A stretch of 64,000 nucleotides of DNA, taken from NCBI GenBank assembly GCA_944381345.1, contig CALWKU010000080.1, forward strand, positions 2,891-66,890, written 5' to 3'. The position numbers were made by a program, and so were the translations under genes. How positions within the stretch are numbered: position 1 is the first letter of the stretch; each line of letters starts with the position of its first letter. The notes below the pieces were generated by a model that did not search any database, was not told the DNA's origin, and saw only the letters and a program-made list of their open reading frames with translations. Shown here in pieces: positions 2,308 through 56,822 of this stretch. Source of the stretch: an uncultured Christensenellaceae bacterium (lineage in GTDB: Bacteria > Bacillota > Clostridia > Christensenellales > UBA3700).

Positions 2308-4044
2308 TCAGCCGTTCAATTCAAGGTTTTTCCGTGCGTCCGGTTTGACCGCTACTGAGTTGTAGACGGTGTAAAGCACCATTCCCGGCTTGCCGCAGGG
2401 GTGGCGCTTTACGTTCTTTCTGGCGGTGTAGTCGACGACCGCTTTGTCCGAACCTGCGGCTTCGGAATAGTACGCTGCGATTGCGGCAGCCTTGACGATC
2501 ACCTCGTCGGGGACGACTGCGCCTTCGGCGAATATTATCACGTGAGAGCCGTGCGAATCCTTTGCGTGCAGCCAAATGTCGCCGCCGTTTGCGGTCTTGA
2601 AAGTCAATTTGTCGTTTTGAAGATTGTTTTTGCCCGCAGCGACGGTGAAACCGTCTATTTCAAACAGCAGCGGCTTTGCCGGCTTTTGTTTGTGCGCGCC
2701 TTTGGCGGACTTGCCCGATTTCGGCGCGCCCGCATTCTGCAATTCGCCCTCTATTTCCGCGATGTCTTCGAGCGTCTCGCAAGCGTCGATCGACACTTCC
2801 ACGCCGCGCAGATATTCGAGCATATCGCGGCACTCTGCGATCTGGTCGTCGATGAGTTTTGCGGTGCGCTTTTGCTTGGCGTATTTTTTGAAGTATTGCG
2901 ACGCGTTTTGCTGAGGCGAAAGCGCGGGGTCGAGAGGGATCTCGATGGTCGGGCAGTCCTCGCGGTAGTAGTCCGTGACCTTGGCGGCCTTGTCGCCGCG
3001 AGCGATCGAGTGAAGCGAGGACATCAGCAATTCGCCGTATATGCGGTTGCGTTCCGCGCCCTCGGCGTCCTGTTTGCGCGCAAGGCATTTTTCCAATTTT
3101 TTGCGCGTTTTGGCGGTCAGCGAGCGGCAAGCCTTTACGAGATGGCGGACGTGCAGACGCTTGCGCTCTGCTGCGTCGCGCTCGCCGACGCAGAGGTCGA
3201 CGGCTTGGCTCAACGTATCCGTCTTGCGGAACTCCAGTCCCGAACCGTCGTAACGGAACGCGAAAAAGTCGTCGGGCACGTCGTTTTTGAGCGATACGCA
3301 CGGAGAATAGAATGGCATATCATAGACGTCGGCGAGGCTTGTCAGCATATCGGTCAAAGCGTCAGTTTGGGCATCGTCGAGCCTCTCGGCACGCGCGTCG
3401 AGCCCCGAGAGATAGACCGCCTCTTTCGCGGTAGGCTTTGCAAGTCCGCCTATCCCGGTCAGGATGTGGTCGGCAATGTCGCCTCCGGCAAACGACGCTA
3501 CGTGAGCGCGCACGGCGGCTTTGTCGGACAATTTGATCTTGCTTTGCGGCGGCAGTTCGTACTTTGCGCCGGGAAGCAGACAGCGCTTTGTCGCGGTGTC
3601 GAAAGTCGCCTGTTTGAGCGCGTCCTTGACCGCGCCCGTCGCGCCGTCGACAAGCATGATGTTGCTGTATCTGCCCATCATCTCGGCGATCAGCGAAAAT
3701 TTAACGGCGTCGCGCAGTTCGTTGCGCGCGGCGATATCAAAACAGAAGATGCGGTCCTCGCCGAGCATGCGGCAGCCGTCGATCACGGCGCCCGTCAGAA
3801 ATTTGCGCAGCAGCATACAAAACGACGGCGCGTTGACGGGATTTTGCTTTTTCCGGCAGGTGAAGTGTATTCGCGGGTTTTGTGCGTTTGCGGACGCGAC
3901 CAGCGTACGGTTGACGCCCGCGACGCGCACCGCAATCGTGATCTCGTCCTCCTCGGGCATATATATCTTGTCTATTTTCGCTCCGGAAAGCGAAGAGTTC
4001 AGCTCGCGGCAAAGGGCGTTCAAAGTGACGTAATCGTTGGGCAT
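2308..4044 (-). CDS. rqcH: NFACT-family ribosome quality-control factor (RqcH / FbpA-like)
   Basis: The N-terminal NFACT-N region (MPNDYVTLNALCRELN..KIDKIYMPEEDE) and the C-terminal NFACT-R/DUF814 motif (DIWLHAKDSHGSHVII) are both present. The length is 578 aa, and a GGAGGA SD precedes the start. Confidence 0.85.
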   Translation of the reverse strand: MPNDYVTLNALCRELNSSLSGAKIDKIYMPEEDEITIAVRVAGVNRTLVASANAQNPRIHFTCRKKQNPVNAPSFCMLLRKFLTGAVIDGCRMLGEDRIFCFDIAARNELRDAVKFSLIAEMMGRYSNIMLVDGATGAVKDALKQATFDTATKRCLLPGAKYELPPQSKIKLSDKAAVRAHVASFAGGDIADHILTGIGGLAKPTAKEAVYLSGLDARAERLDDAQTDALTDMLTSLADVYDMPFYSPCVSLKNDVPDDFFAFRYDGSGLEFRKTDTLSQAVDLCVGERDAAERKRLHVRHLVKACRSLTAKTRKKLEKCLARKQDAEGAERNRIYGELLMSSLHSIARGDKAAKVTDYYREDCPTIEIPLDPALSPQQNASQYFKKYAKQKRTAKLIDDQIAECRDMLEYLRGVEVSIDACETLEDIAEIEGELQNAGAPKSGKSAKGAHKQKPAKPLLFEIDGFTVAAGKNNLQNDKLTFKTANGGDIWLHAKDSHGSHVIIFAEGAVVPDEVIVKAAAIAAYYSEAAGSDKAVVDYTARKNVKRHPCGKPGMVLYTVYNSVAVKPDARKNLELNG

Positions 4045-48812: not shown

Positions 48813-49127
48813 TTATGCCTCGTTATCATCGACGGCTTGAATCAAAAAACTGACGGGGCGAAAGCCGTCGTTGCAAGATAGCATCGCCGAATGCGAATCC
48901 TTCATCCAATCACCGTAAAACCTGCCTCCGCCGCGCAAAAGTTCATCGACAAAAGGGAAGAGCGTCTCCCACGCGTTTTTACAAAAACCGCGCGGACGGT
49001 TGCCGTCGCTCCAAAAGATTTGACCGACGCGCATATCGCAGGCGTTAGAAATAGGGTTTTCGTATTTTGCGATCAAATCGTCATAGCGCGCGACGCGCAT
49101 GACCGTGATCTTGCACTTCCTCGTCAC
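48813..49127 (-). CDS. Small 4-Cys protein resembling the TIGR04076 family, co-transcribed with lexA
   Basis: It is 104 aa with the pattern KITV..., CD..VGQ.F, P.GFC..AW, and SC.DGFRPV.F. Its ATG overlaps the lexA stop by 4 nt. Confidence 0.6.
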   Translation of the reverse strand: MTRKCKITVMRVARYDDLIAKYENPISNACDMRVGQIFWSDGNRPRGFCKNAWETLFPFVDELLRGGGRFYGDWMKDSHSAMLSCNDGFRPVSFLIQAVDDNEA

Positions 49128-49759
49128 GCCTTGTGCGCGAACGAATTGCGCATCAATCCGACGGCAATGCCGAGGATGCGGAAGTCCGTCCCTTCGGGTA
49201 CGACGATGTCATCCATTTGAGAATTTTCAGGATGAAGGACTATGTCGCCGTCCTTGCGGAAAAAGCGTTTGAGCGTCACCTCGCCGCCGTCTATCTGTGC
49301 GGCGACGATGTCGCCCTCATTTGCCGTCGGCGTAGATCTGATCAGTACTACGTCGCCGTTCATAATGCCTATCTCGCGCATACTTTCACCCTTTACGGTC
49401 AAGCAAAAATTGTCGCCGACGAGATGAAAGAAATCGGCGGGAAAGTGCATCTTGACGTCGTTCTCGACTGCGGCAAGCAACGGTTGACCTGCGGCGATGT
49501 TGCCGAGCATGGGGACGGTCGCAAAGTCTTTGAATTCTTCGTCGTCGACGAGTTCGATCGTCCTGTTTTTGGCGGTCTCGCGTTTGATCAGCCCCGCGTT
49601 GACGAGTTTTTCGAGATAGTATTGCACGGAAGCGGTTGACTTGAAGCCGCCTTCGCGGCAGATATCGCGCACGCTGGGCGAATAGTTGTGTTCGGACACA
49701 AACTTGCGGATGCAAGCCATCGTCTTGTCCAAATTTTCCTGCATTTTTGTCGACGCCAT
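49124..49759 (-). CDS. lexA: SOS repressor LexA
   Basis: It has a winged-helix N-domain, the Ala-Gly cleavage site (NIAAGQP), and the S24 catalytic Ser (GESM) and Lys (TLKRF). Confidence 0.96.
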   Translation of the reverse strand: MASTKMQENLDKTMACIRKFVSEHNYSPSVRDICREGGFKSTASVQYYLEKLVNAGLIKRETAKNRTIELVDDEEFKDFATVPMLGNIAAGQPLLAAVENDVKMHFPADFFHLVGDNFCLTVKGESMREIGIMNGDVVLIRSTPTANEGDIVAAQIDGGEVTLKRFFRKDGDIVLHPENSQMDDIVVPEGTDFRILGIAVGLMRNSFAHKA

Positions 49760-50068: not shown

Positions 50069-51121
50069 TCAATTTCTCGGTTCACGCAAGATGACTTTAC
50101 GTGCGGCGTCGCGCTTGATATCGTCGCTGATAGCGGCGTAATGGCGTTTTGTCGTGTTGATGTCCTTATGTCCGAGTACTTCGGCCACGACATAGATGTC
50201 GCCCGTTTCGCGGTACAGTTCGGTGCCGTATGTGCTGCGCAGCTTGTGAGGCGTGATCTTTTTGAGCGGGGTTACGATCTGTGCGTATTTTTTTACCAAA
50301 AGTTCGACGCTGCGCACCGACATACGCTTTTTTTGCAAAGATACGAACAGCGCCGGCACTTCATCGAGCGCTTCGTCCTTTGCGCGTTCGTCAAGCCATG
50401 CGAGCAGAGCGTCCGCGACTTCGTCCGAAAAGTACAAGATCGTCTGAGAACCGCCTTTTCGCGTGATCTTGAATCCGTTTACGTTAAAATCGAGGTCGTC
50501 GACGTCAAGACCGACAAGCTCGCTGATACGAATCCCCGTACCGAGAAAGAGCGTCATGATCGCAAGATCGCGCAAACGGGTCTTTTCGTGAAAAGCTGCT
50601 TGTCGCTCGCCCAAGCCTTCGCCGCTGTCTACGCTGTCAAGCAATCGCGTAACTTCATCTACTTCAAGCCTTATGATCGGTTTCTCGTGTAATTTCGGCG
50701 TCAAGACTTTGGATGCCGGATCGGAGTCTATCGAATCCTTGTTGTAAAAATACTTGAAAAAAGATTTGATAGTGGACAATTTGCGTGCCTTAGTTTTGAC
50801 GCTGTTTGAATATTTTACGCCGTCGAACTCGTAATAGTTGAGAAATTCGAGAAAAGATTCTATCTGCGATGTAGAGACTTCGTCAAGCTGTTTAATGCCG
50901 AAATTCGACGCGTCAAAGCTTTGAAATTCGCGTGTTTCCGTAAAAAGATAATAAAAAAATATTCTGAGATCGTATGCGTATTCCAATCTCGTAAGAGGCG
51001 TCGTGCGGTTTTCGATCCCGATGAAAAATTCATCGCAAAACTTAGGCAGATCGCGCCTGATCTCACGCAATTTGAGCGTATTGTCAATGTTTCGTTGCTC
51101 AAAATAATCGGTCTTTTTCAT
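50069..51121 (-). CDS. Tyrosine recombinase (XerC/D-like, 350 aa with extended N-terminal SAM-like domain)
   Basis: The catalytic signature is present: RDLAIMTLFLGTGIRISE (Arg), HKLRST (His-x-x-Arg) and LGHKDINTTKRHY (His...Tyr). Confidence 0.9.
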   Translation of the reverse strand: MKKTDYFEQRNIDNTLKLREIRRDLPKFCDEFFIGIENRTTPLTRLEYAYDLRIFFYYLFTETREFQSFDASNFGIKQLDEVSTSQIESFLEFLNYYEFDGVKYSNSVKTKARKLSTIKSFFKYFYNKDSIDSDPASKVLTPKLHEKPIIRLEVDEVTRLLDSVDSGEGLGERQAAFHEKTRLRDLAIMTLFLGTGIRISELVGLDVDDLDFNVNGFKITRKGGSQTILYFSDEVADALLAWLDERAKDEALDEVPALFVSLQKKRMSVRSVELLVKKYAQIVTPLKKITPHKLRSTYGTELYRETGDIYVVAEVLGHKDINTTKRHYAAISDDIKRDAARKVILREPRN

Positions 51122-55028: not shown

Positions 55029-55487
55029 TCAATCTATTTGCGGGTTTTTGGATGCGTTGGCTATCTCTCCCGTCGCCAGCTTGTCGCATCGGTTGTTGTA
55101 GATGTTGTCGGAGTGTCCTTTGACCTTGACGAAGTTCACCGAGTGCTTTCCGCACTCCAAAAGCAGCATTTTCCACAGATCGGCGTTTTTGACCTGCCCT
55201 TTGCCGCCTTTAAGTTTCCAATCCGAAGCGCTCCATTCGTCTATCCATCCCTCCAGAAAGGCATTGCAGACATAAGCGGAATCGGAATAGACAGTCACTT
55301 CGCACCGCTGATTGAGCTGTTTAAGCCCTTGGATGACGGCAAACAACTCCATACGATTGTTGGTCGTCTCGCGGTTGTAGCCGCTGAGCTCTTTTTCTAT
55401 GCCGTTATAGATGAGGATCGCCGCCCATCCGCCCGCGCCGGGATTGCCCGAACACGCGCCGTCGGTATATATGTCTACCTTTTTCAT
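55029..55487 (-). CDS. rnhA: Ribonuclease HI
   Basis: IYTDGACSGNPG.GGWAAIL, NNRMEL, SDS.Y and KGHS....N..D.LA are present. The ATG overlaps the proC stop (ATGA). Confidence 0.93.
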   Translation of the reverse strand: MKKVDIYTDGACSGNPGAGGWAAILIYNGIEKELSGYNRETTNNRMELFAVIQGLKQLNQRCEVTVYSDSAYVCNAFLEGWIDEWSASDWKLKGGKGQVKNADLWKMLLLECGKHSVNFVKVKGHSDNIYNNRCDKLATGEIANASKNPQID

Positions 55488-56278
55488 GCTTTGCCCAGCT
55501 CCTCGCTGCGCTTGCGGCAAGCGGTCATTCCGTCGATGACGATCCCGTCCATCCCGGCTTTGCGGAATGTGTCTATTGCCCGGATGGTCGTGCCGCCCTT
55601 TGAGCAAACCTTGTCGATTAACACTTCGAGATCGTCGTCCGATATCTCGGCTAATTTGCACGCGCCTGCCACGGTTGCGAGCGTCAACCGTTTTGCTACA
55701 TCGGGCGAAAGCCCGTTGGCAATGCCGCCCTCCGTCATCGCTTTTATGAAATAAAATACGTATGCCGGGCCGCTTCCGCTGACGCAAGTGACGGCGTCAA
55801 AGTCTTTTTCGGGCACATAAACGGTCTGACCGACCGATTGGAAGATTTTGCGGCAAAAGGAGTTGCTCTCTCCCGAACAGCGGTTTTCTGCTATCGCGGT
55901 CGCACCCATGCCCACTTTGGACGGTGTGTTCGGCATTACTCGTATTATATTGCCGCAAACTCCAAGTGCGTTTGCAACGGTTTCCGAGTTAAGTCCCGCC
56001 ATTATGCTGATGACTGCCGCAGACTGCACCGGTCGCAGTTCGTGAGCGATACTTTTGAATACCTGCGGTTTGACCGCAAGCACCGTATACTCGCTGTTTG
56101 CGGTCACATATGCGTTGTTCGTAGTGCAGGTTATGCCTTCGATCGGCGTAACTCCGCTCGTATTCGACATCACGATGTCCTCTGCCGTCGCCATCCCCGA
56201 GGATAAGACTCCGTGAACGATAGCTTGAGCCATATTGCCCGAACCGACAAAACCGAGCTTGAATTTGTAATTTGCCAT
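55484..56278 (-). CDS. proC: Pyrroline-5-carboxylate reductase
   Basis: The Rossmann motif LGFVGSGNMAQAI, ..RVMPNTP and SPGGTT-like SKGGTT are present. The start at 56278 has a GAGGT SD, and the upstream 34 codons of the track ORF run into the repeat. Confidence 0.93.
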   Translation of the reverse strand: MANYKFKLGFVGSGNMAQAIVHGVLSSGMATAEDIVMSNTSGVTPIEGITCTTNNAYVTANSEYTVLAVKPQVFKSIAHELRPVQSAAVISIMAGLNSETVANALGVCGNIIRVMPNTPSKVGMGATAIAENRCSGESNSFCRKIFQSVGQTVYVPEKDFDAVTCVSGSGPAYVFYFIKAMTEGGIANGLSPDVAKRLTLATVAGACKLAEISDDDLEVLIDKVCSKGGTTIRAIDTFRKAGMDGIVIDGMTACRKRSEELGKA

Positions 56279-56383
56279 AGTTACCTCGCAGACAATTTTA
56301 TCACAACGATATCTTTTTGGCAACGAAAAGCAGAGATCAACTCGCATATATCCATGAAGAGATCGTATCGGGCAGCTCAAACG

Positions 56384-56489
56384 AAAGCGCGAGCGTCACA
56401 CGCAACTTGCATTATATGCAAACTTGCATATTTAGAATCGCGTCTCCCTCTGCCATATAAGCAAAAAGAGAACGCGGTTTCGTTCTTTT
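56384..56489 (+). repeat. Unit A of the 210-bp-period tandem repeat: GC hairpin, palindrome, tRNA-Trp 3'-half copy, terminator
   Basis: It is near-identical to 56594-56700. It contains TTGCATTATATGCAA (56407-21), TTAGAATCGCGTCTCCCTCTGCC (56432-54), and the hairpin AGAGAACG/CGTTCT. Confidence 0.85.
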
Positions 56490-56593
56490 GCATCTTGCGC
56501 GATTCGTAAGGAGCGAGATATGTATATATCGAGCGACGGAATAGCGAGCGAGCAAGACTATACGGGAACGACGGTATTGGTCGTGTAAAGTAA

Positions 56594-56700
56594 AAAGCGC
56601 GAGCGTCACACGCAACTTGCATTATATGCAAACTTGCATATTTCGAATCGCGTCTCCCCCTGCCGTATAAGCAAAAAGAGAACGCGGTTTCGTTCTCTTT
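56594..56700 (+). repeat. Unit B of the tandem repeat
   Basis: It contains TTGCATTATATGCAA (56617-31) and TTCGAATCGCGTCTCCCCCTGCC (56642-64). The latter is the sense sequence of the tRNA-Trp 3' half with one extra C. A bidirectional terminator lies at 56673-56702. Confidence 0.85.
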
Positions 56701-56702
56701 TT
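56673..56702. terminator. Bidirectional rho-independent terminator that serves tRNA-Trp on the minus strand
   Basis: AAAAAGAGAACG-CGGTTT-CGTTCTCTTTTT. Confidence 0.85.
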
Positions 56703-56705
56703 GTG

Positions 56706-56780
56706 TGGCAGGGGAGACGCGATTCGAACACGCAACCAATGGTTTTGGAGACCACTACTCTACCGTTGAGCCACTCCCCT
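56706..56780 (-). tRNA. trnW: tRNA-Trp (anticodon CCA), with the 3' CCA encoded
   Basis: The reverse complement reads AGGGGAG-TG-GCTC-AACGGTA-GAGT-A-GTGGT-CTCCAAA-ACCAT-TGGTT-GCGTG-TTCGAAT-CGCGT-CTCCCCT-G-CCA. This gives a cloverleaf with a 7-bp acceptor stem and a TTCGAAT T-loop. Confidence 0.93.
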
Positions 56781-56793
56781 AAATTGCCTATAC

Positions 56794-56822
56794 ATTTTAC
56801 TATGCGCCGCAGAATAAGTCAA
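56794..56822 (-). promoter_or_regulatory. Sigma-A promoter of tRNA-Trp
   Basis: On the minus strand: TTGACT (56817-22), a 17-nt spacer, then TAAAAT (56794-99). It ends 13 nt before the tRNA 5' end. Confidence 0.65.

Follow-up and report, generated by a model that had tools for sequence, protein, structure and literature searches.

A duplicated module behind tRNA-Trp in a clostridial genome as part of a probable tandem array built on the plan of Escherichia coli tRNA-linked repeats

The tRNA-linked repeats (TLRs) of Escherichia coli, known since 1978 and first described as 178-bp repeats at tyrT (Egan & Landy 1978, Rudd 1999, cited in PMC8144298), comprise 22 units at ten loci, with one to five units per locus, and close with 18–19 bp that exactly repeat the 3′-terminal sequence of the tRNA or rRNA ahead of them (PMC8144298). 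Most of them have no known function; rrA, rrB and rrF stand behind 5S rRNA between two terminators and are made by read-through (PMC8144298), while 3′ETS-leuZ is a processed tRNA 3′-trailer RNA without a promoter of its own, present as a single unit before the terminator and acting as a sponge of small RNAs (Lalaouna et al. 2015, summarised in PMC8144298). The present analysis concerns a duplicated module directly downstream of the tRNA-Trp gene in a 64,000-nt stretch of DNA from an uncultured Christensenellaceae bacterium (contig CALWKU010000080.1; this whole stretch is referred to as the window). With a probability of roughly 0.55, the module forms part of a TLR-like tandem array behind tRNA-Trp in a small group of Clostridia from the chicken gut, that is, a recombination-built array of trailers and terminators transcribed by read-through, rather than a new anti-tRNA regulator. 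On this reading the array represents a variant of tRNA-linked repeats in Clostridia that shares no homology with those of E. coli and gives unusual prominence to the inverted copy of the tRNA end and to the terminator palindromes.

The tRNA-Trp(CCA) gene occupies positions 56706–56780 of the minus strand with its CCA encoded; ARAGORN and Rfam (tRNA, 63 bits) agree with the preliminary description of the locus on this placement, the only tRNA placed. An array of two units starts within the T-loop of this gene and extends downstream on the minus strand. On the plus strand, 56642–56659 is complementary at 18 of 18 positions to 56711–56728, which hold the T-loop, the 3′ side of the T-stem and the acceptor 3′ strand, and this inverted copy runs on to 56664 with one extra C, exactly as had been reported. 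The 64-kb window contains 3 occurrences of the 18-mer when 3 mismatches or fewer are tolerated, against 0.21 expected, and a 25-nt palindrome block occurs twice against 0.00 expected. The 106-nt module at 56594–56699 is repeated at 56384–56489 with 96% identity and a spacing of 210 nt, and no further copy was found elsewhere in the 64-kb window. The array is thus real and far from chance. The module, its spacing and the A/T-flanked hairpin, placed here at 56672–56703, had all been recognised earlier, with small miscounts: the gap between the tRNA end and its inverted copy is 41 nt rather than 42, the tRNA-like part of the upstream module carries three substitutions rather than four, and its terminator arm has lost three nucleotides rather than two.

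Read in the sense of the tRNA, the first feature of unit 1 past the tRNA is a terminator hairpin (56672–56684 paired with 56691–56703) that has a 13-bp stem, a 6-nt loop and flanking A- and T-runs, and is bidirectional in form. This hairpin is the centre of an extended palindrome whose left arm is the last ~23 nt of the tRNA-Trp gene on the minus strand, and relatives hold a hairpin of other sequence at the same place. The antisense copy of the tRNA-Trp 3′ half follows at 56642–56664 (minus strand; GGCAGGGGGAGACGCGATTCGAA in tRNA sense), its first 18 nt being the perfect complement before the extra base; in relatives it is kept as (T)GGCAGGGGAGACGCGATT, which includes the complement of CCA. 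Next comes the variable hairpin region H2 (56612–56641, minus strand), built as GCAAG-T, a variable stem, a loop, the returning stem and AAGTTGC; it contains TTGCAT-TAT-ATGCAA and overlaps an alternative ATATGCAA/TTGCATAT palindrome. An invariant 20-mer, AAGTTGCGTGTGACGCTCGC in tRNA sense, lies at 56599–56618 of the minus strand. As already noted in the preliminary description, the minus strand of both modules also holds GTTGCGTGT, the sequence of the tRNA variable loop and the 5′ side of the T-stem. The unit closes with a conserved spacer block (56498–56553, minus strand; ...GCTCGCTCGCTATTCCGTCGCTCG...CTCGCTCCTTACGAATCGCG in tRNA sense) that is rich in GCTCGC hexamers. At the end of this block, and marking the boundary between units 1 and 2, stands a decayed direct copy of the T-loop and the 3′ side of the T-stem, TTACGAATCGCG (56498–56509, minus strand; 11/12 identical to the tRNA), from which the acceptor part is lost; the preliminary description had passed over this copy. 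Because this direct copy lies between the modules, the true repeat unit measures ~210 nt, from T-loop to T-loop.

Unit 2 repeats this arrangement. Its terminator hairpin at 56462–56490 is a copy of that of unit 1 with the shortened arm described above and includes a minus-strand terminator-like site at 56486..56469. The antisense copy of the tRNA 3′ half follows at 56432–56454, the H2 region, with the same sequence as in unit 1, at 56402–56431, and the invariant 20-mer at 56389–56408, all on the minus strand. In a further sample of this species, the antisense copy of unit 2 has the variants found here in unit 1. The array ends a few bases past the unit 2 20-mer, where homology ceases after GACGCTCGCGCTTT.

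Contigs with close ProC or PurB homologues provide related loci, and the tRNA-Trp gene is identical in all of them. In these loci, one to four units of ~175–220 nt stand directly behind tRNA-Trp on the same strand: three units in L016, L023 and L002 and two in L003, and, within Ornithoclostridium, one in L017 and L019, two in L020, L021 and L024, and three plus a partial one in L022. On the tRNA strand each unit begins with a core T(T/A)CGAATCGCGT, followed by a terminator-like hairpin whose sequence is lineage-specific and whose stem is retained, by the (T)GGCAGGGGAGACGCGATT antisense copy, by H2 and the 20-mer, and by a spacer ending in a GCTCGCTATTCCGTC...CTCCTTACGAATCGCGT block. Copy number and unit order differ among close strains; specifically, the order of H2 types is B,A,B in L016, A,B,B in L002, B,B,B in L023 and A,A in the window.

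A further lineage is represented by L034, with the gene order Fe-ADH, 421-aa gene, array, tRNA-Trp, proC, rnhA, PadR, recombinase and LexA. Its two units contain two additional stretches that repeat the final 21 nt of tRNA-Trp in direct orientation (CGAATCGCGTCTCCCCTGCCA), at 21/21 positions in both cases. Behind every one of these copies stands a separate strong terminator and then a ~120-nt spacer. The spacer contains a decayed inverted tRNA copy, spanning variable loop to CCA, and then an H2-shaped hairpin, and it is homologous to the diverged single module of L018. This homology, taken with the other arrays, extends the family to at least three lineages. Direct copies are thus well preserved in one lineage and inverted copies in the others. 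In L018 itself (module at 3597–3855), an Ornithoclostridium purB side is joined exactly at tRNA-Trp to another flank carrying Fe-ADH, a 425-aa gene, a methyltransferase and Zip; the junction is a genuine rearrangement at this gene, or else an artefact of a low-coverage assembly, chimeric through the identical 75-nt tRNA.

The tyrT/tyrV region of E. coli K-12 (NC_000913.3, 1286300–1288000; L035) served as a control for comparison with described repeats. Rfam RtT (RF00391) finds four units there, at 133–138 bits, whereas the window gives no RtT match at E ≤ 10 and L016, L022 and L034 give none at the gathering threshold. An Rfam scan of the window returns tRNA only, matches to miRNA families merely reflecting the long hairpin. 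In each tyrT/tyrV RtT unit (L035 405–1260), 22 nt show 86% complementarity to the T-arm and acceptor 3′ strand of tRNA-Tyr, and in the Rfam RtT consensus this antisense segment pairs with the 18–19-nt direct 3′-end copy. The TLR description in PMC8144298 does not mention this inverted copy in the tyrT/tyrV units.

The likeness of the two systems therefore lies in their architecture. In all related loci the array stands directly behind a stable-RNA gene and on its strand; where TLRs have one to five tandem copies of ~150–200 nt, the window has two and its relatives one to four; each unit is tied to the 3′-end sequence of the upstream tRNA; and each has an internal antisense segment, 18–23 nt long here, with a predicted 10-bp closing helix that lacks covariation support. 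Moreover, the rrnB unit lies between two terminators as a read-through product, and the L034 layout, known from its sequence alone, matches this exactly. The claim of the preliminary description that the module is not a described element consequently falls, since the architecture matches the TLR/RtT plan down to the antisense copy that pairs with a direct copy. What the sequences establish is the anatomy, its tie to tRNA-Trp, the strain-to-strain turnover, the flipped palindrome loops treated below and this parallel to TLRs. The differences are equally clear: the host phylum and the tRNA are others, and there is no similarity in sequence or to the covariance model; the well-kept copy in the window's lineage is the antisense one; each unit here carries its own intrinsic-terminator-like hairpin; and the antisense copy places the tRNA end within a long, often perfect palindrome.

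Searches beyond these loci address how far the module is confined to tRNA-Trp. The invariant 20-mer retrieves four metagenomic stretches: three carry tRNA-Trp arrays belonging to this clade, and in the fourth a coding sequence is matched by chance. Every real match thus stands at tRNA-Trp, and on present sequences the module is tied to this gene rather than dispersed, in line with the linkage that the preliminary description had put forward for checking. Scanning genome contigs with GTTGCGTGTGACGCTCGCG yielded only five chance matches in unrelated high-GC bacteria, which have no bearing on dispersal because the last base of the pattern varies in relatives.

The most serious rival explanation arises from the boundaries of the units. 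The units may be relics of attachment (att) sites, left behind by integrative elements aimed at the T-loop of tRNA-Trp either as attL/attR scars or as mini-elements of the CIME kind, with each insertion bringing a replacement tRNA 3′ end and a terminator, and with the conserved blocks and GCTCGC repeats acting as arm sites for a recombinase; as a whole this origin is judged quite unlikely. Attachment sites in tRNA genes reportedly include a class located in the T-loop, and CIME-type remnants are said to lack an integrase. The units likewise start in the T-loop (T[T/A]CGAATCGCG), L034 has its perfect 21-nt direct copies from T-loop to CCA, each with its own terminator, units accrete in tandem, and the DNA downstream is variable: gene content beyond the array differs between close strains, and the flanks are rearranged at the tRNA in L018 and L034. 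Direct cores flank every ~200-nt unit, although with the unit itself as the only DNA between them. Additionally, the GCTCGC motifs recur in direct orientation, and the T-loop hexamer TTCGAA is itself palindromic and could permit recombination either way. The preliminary description had discounted att scars on the grounds that the copies are inverted, not direct. Inverted copies do exist, and to our knowledge they are not expected from simple integration, but the argument is weakened by the direct copies, namely the decayed one at 56498–56509 and the perfect 21-mers of L034.

What speaks against att relics is instead the content of the arrays and the missing donor. In none of the ~20 loci is an integrase-bearing element inserted between the tRNA-Trp gene and its units, and the DNA between the repeats, only ~200 bp per unit, has neither integrase nor cargo. 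The sole nearby tyrosine recombinase is Xer-like, falls below every NCBIfam cut-off and is syntenic with that of L034, to which it is 61% identical and where a LexA-domain gene is its neighbour; it was accordingly rejected as a neighbouring integrase acting on the array. No attP-like source emerged from the viral, phage and plasmid searches: viral contigs gave 0 matches to the invariant 20-mer and 0 to either tRNA 3′-end pattern, and BLAST of the region against phages and plasmids returned tRNA-Trp genes only, not the module. Furthermore, the sequence past the distal cores does not consist of decayed tRNA 3′ ends, although the adjoining bases are perfectly conserved, and the E. coli TLRs, which share the plan, are not described as att scars in PMC8144298.

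The palindromes offer a different view of how the arrays are maintained. In Ornithoclostridium (L017, L019, L020, L021) the last 21 nt of the tRNA lie inside a palindrome whose two 39-bp arms match perfectly around a 6-nt spacer, and in L016 and L023 perfect arms of 33–35 bp likewise include the tRNA 3′ end; the palindrome of the window is interrupted, with 13 bp, an asymmetric loop and a further 18 + 4 bp. Between L017 and L021, and between L016 and L026, the palindrome loops are exact reverse complements of each other with unchanged arms, which indicates that recombination or template switching between the arms occurs. Loop inversions at hairpins are known from chloroplast spacers, and quasi-palindromes are said to be corrected by template switching. 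The present palindromes resemble such cases in their inverted loops and perfectly homogenised arms, and in this process 'compensatory' changes in stems arise without selection. Exchange between arms would, we infer, keep the antisense copy nearest the tRNA identical to the tRNA sequence, with selection needed on the tRNA only and not on the copy. Quasi-palindrome correction is a mutational process rather than an element: it explains the form and upkeep of the inverted copy, and leaves the invariant non-palindromic blocks and the tandem array unexplained.

These observations bear directly on a reading in which the array is a non-functional by-product, consisting of neutral or selfish repeats generated by hairpin-driven template switching and unequal crossing-over beside a highly expressed, structured gene. 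Such an origin is unlikely on the whole, and the evidence divides. The fast turnover of copy number, unit order and loop orientation is what such repeats would show, as are the perfectly homogenised palindrome arms and the negligible covariation signal given below, and E. coli TLRs are likewise mostly without known function (PMC8144298). The conserved parts of the units tell the other way. The 20-mer AAGTTGCGTGTGACGCTCGC is identical in all A-, B- and C-type units except one with a 1-nt insertion, and it is invariant across lineages together with the GCTCGCTATTCCGTC block, while the neighbouring ~45 nt cannot be aligned. GCTCGC occurs on the tRNA-sense strand only, with three to five copies per unit in the window's group and two in both Ornithoclostridium units tested; shuffled sequences lead one to expect ~0.2–0.3 per unit, and the complement GCGAGC has a count of 0 on the tRNA-sense strand. 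Hairpin and T-run are also maintained in the distal units. The invariant blocks do not fit easily with a purely neutral repeat, and the 20-mer and GCTCGC-rich block suggest a putative sequence-specific partner.

H2 behaves in the opposite manner, keeping its shape and changing its sequence. It has a GCAA/TTGC base, one bulge, a stem of 5–7 bp and a loop of 3–4 nt, and it occurs in eight variants with five unrelated inner stems. The earlier proposal that TTGCAT-TAT-ATGCAA is a specific protein site does not survive this comparison, as four other stem sequences occupy the same hairpin shape in relatives.

On the assembly and expression of the array, the favoured reading of a TLR-like trailer and terminator array proposes the following. 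The array would arise and stay homogeneous by unequal crossing-over between units and the T-loop core, with fold-back or template switching across the terminator palindrome adding to the homogenisation. Transcription would enter its units only by read-through of the tRNA-Trp terminator, by analogy with rrA, rrB and rrF of E. coli, because no conserved promoter-like site lies inside the units and the tRNA-sense strand folds better. Specifically, a consensus scan of the window and its relatives found no conserved promoter-like site on either strand inside the units, such sites occurring only at the tRNA and at downstream genes; the tRNA-sense strand folds 4–9 kcal/mol better than its opposite, and G-U pairs favour it. 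In the window the scan leaves a single promoter-like candidate for tRNA-sense transcription into the array, the TTGACT-17-TAAAAT site of tRNA-Trp at 56794..56822 on the minus strand, which has an equivalent in L016 and L022. Each successive terminator would then halt part of the read-through and insulate proC. The resulting RNA would resemble 3′ETS-leuZ in that it is proposed to come from a tRNA 3′ trailer by processing and without its own promoter; it differs in that the units here are repeated, lie beyond the terminator and have no known target. A plus-strand promoter-like site, TTGACT-17-TAGAAT, is present at the far end of the L034 array (2743–2771), pointing inward and antisense to the tRNA, and is possibly a chance match.

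Within a read-through transcript, the antisense copy would pair with one of two partners, the tRNA 3′ half or the direct copy that follows. Modelling of such a transcript predicts that the tRNA 3′ half is sequestered in a ~36-bp duplex, with a minimum free energy of −89.5 kcal/mol and z = −8.3, and this predicted duplex could flag read-through RNAs for cleavage. The same pairing could be taken as anti-tRNA regulation, in which the antisense segment pairs with (pre-)tRNA-Trp and controls its 3′ maturation, stability or availability, either in cis or as a processed RNA in trans. The 18–23 nt of complementarity to the tRNA 3′ end, extended in relatives to the complement of CCA, would suit such a role, as would the predicted sequestration, and an antisense copy is present in E. 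coli RtT too. This regulation is nonetheless decidedly unlikely, for the complementarity is not conserved. Among strains with identical PurB, the tRNA-proximal antisense copy is perfect in some and has 4–5 mismatches in others (L022_u1, L024_u1), from which it follows that perfect complementarity to tRNA-Trp is not required; in L018 and L034 the antisense copies are strongly decayed. Where identity is perfect, homogenisation of the palindrome, visible in the flipped loops, accounts for it. Moreover, a strong terminator stands ahead of the antisense segment, and the units have terminator-like hairpins without a conserved promoter-like site. Of the earlier proposal that minus-strand read-through carries an anti-tRNA segment, the read-through part fits the anatomy, the folding and the predicted sequestration, and a need for its ~22-bp duplex with tRNA-Trp finds no support, given the copies with 4–5 mismatches.

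The other product considered in the preliminary description lies on the plus strand, either as short RNAs mimicking the tRNA-Trp 3′ half or as a 22-aa peptide (56520–56588). The plus strand does read as the 3′ half of the tRNA in sense orientation, with a hairpin and T-run behind it, and the 22-codon open reading frame (ORF) reads as had been stated, with AAGGAG 6 nt ahead of its ATG. The window and its relatives, however, show no conserved plus-strand promoter from which a mimic RNA might start; the G-U pairs favour the other strand, and ARAGORN and Rfam call nothing on the plus strand. The ORF shrinks to MRATE-stop, five codons, in L005 and L016, and in Ornithoclostridium the ATG is absent at that place. 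A plus-strand product is accordingly very improbable.

Several features of the array itself weigh against the TLR-like reading and limit the confidence placed in it. RtT homology is lacking, so that, on the sequence comparison, the likeness to TLRs is one of plan and not of descent. The direct 18–19-nt 3′-end copy typical of TLRs has decayed in the window to the 11/12-nt TTACGAATCGCG, and is present in full form in L034 (21/21, twice). A covariation analysis, suggested earlier as a check, was run with RNAalifold on nine aligned units: it predicts a nearly invariant 10-bp closing helix, ACGCGATTCG/CGAATCGCGT, in 9/9, and its covariation term of only −0.48 kcal/mol is negligible. Compensatory changes in the hairpins could stem from palindrome homogenisation rather than from selection, and the exact T-loop starts of the units are also expected of integrase-mediated events. 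Read-through expression and the role as a stack of terminators are inferred from sequence features, and the 20-mer and the GCTCGC-rich block suggest a sequence-specific role that goes beyond a passive terminator stack.

In a bolder extension, TLRs would form a class of functional tRNA-trailer RNAs that arose convergently and reaches far outside the Enterobacteria. Read-through unit RNAs would then form a helix between antisense segment and 3′ copy that resembles an acceptor end, and a protein would recognise the 20-mer and the two to five strand-specific GCUCGC motifs of each unit, with RrA/B/F and CsrA as the model; in another version, pre-tRNA-Trp from read-through would be singled out by the antisense copy for duplex-specific cleavage. 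This extension is speculative and, like the att origin, quite unlikely. If it is true, the output of the strongest promoter class would be coupled to a regulatory or quality-control signal.

Several other candidates were considered and rejected. A promoter within the palindrome fails because type A has TATAAT in tRNA sense without a usable −35 element, and types B, C and D have no TATAAT. A proC leader or T-box is disfavoured by proC having its own promoter and by relatives with 84% identical ProC (L002, L004) that have no array directly upstream of proC. An operator or palindromic protein site is at odds with the unconserved stem sequence. A retrovirus-style primer-binding site came to mind from the 18–19 nt complementary to the tRNA 3′ end, with a TGG start in relatives, and was set aside because the units have no reverse transcriptase or other coding capacity. 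By eye, an integron attC is excluded, as GTTGCGT misses the GTTRRRY core and has no matching inverse core, and plus-strand GAG repeats of the TRAP type have the wrong spacing.

What makes the parallel with E. coli of interest is the lack of kinship between the two repeat families. A limited literature search found no report of an unrelated TLR counterpart outside Enterobacteria, and TLRs themselves are mostly still without known function. A shared plan without sequence relationship implies that the design is produced repeatedly, whether through a mutational route that is general at tRNA 3′ ends or through a shared selective use. The natural variants form a comparative series, with perfect and decayed antisense copies, one to four units, flipped loops, and the direct-copy-rich L034 set against the inverted-copy-rich window. 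In practical terms, long palindromes and repeats break metagenome assemblies at the tRNA-Trp locus: all 6 of the 6 same-species metagenome contigs retrieved, whether through proC, an almost identical proC or purB, end within the array region, as is expected of a repeat and palindrome trap. The same palindromes and repeats may also seed chimeric assembly joins at tRNA-Trp.

On the distal side of the array, proC occupies 55484–56278 of the minus strand and has a promoter-like site of its own, TTGCCA-17-TAAAAT with TG, at 56295..56323 on the same strand, downstream of the array. This promoter region is kept in L001, L005 and L004 whether an array is present or not, and the promoter-like site indicates that proC is independent of the array. 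The genes between array and proC differ among close strains, the window having none. The interval holds CLIPPER-domain ORFs of 150, 162 and 363 aa in L017, L020 and L021 (2800–3340), three small ORFs in L022 (2270–2870), and a HipA_C-like kinase, an ECF sigma factor and a 753-aa ORF in L016 (1–3045), L002 and L003. On the other side, purB lies on the plus strand to the right of tRNA-Trp, and judged by PurB homologues the organism stands close to Candidatus Ornithoclostridium and Borkfalkia, both Clostridia of the chicken gut. No tRNA-Trp was found near purB in the Borkfalkia loci, which therefore contribute no comparison.

Elsewhere in the window, the gene of the Xer-like recombinase spans 50069–51121 on the minus strand within a dip to 43% GC. 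Beside it, an unannotated 211-aa ORF (49124–49759) may be a LexA candidate, as the gene order of L034 suggests. Cumulative GC skew peaks near 48–50 kb and then declines, which may mark a replication terminus. Finally, the segment 16000–28000 has a GC content of 44–51%, compared with ~55% elsewhere, together with a strong positive GC skew, and may represent an island or a prophage.

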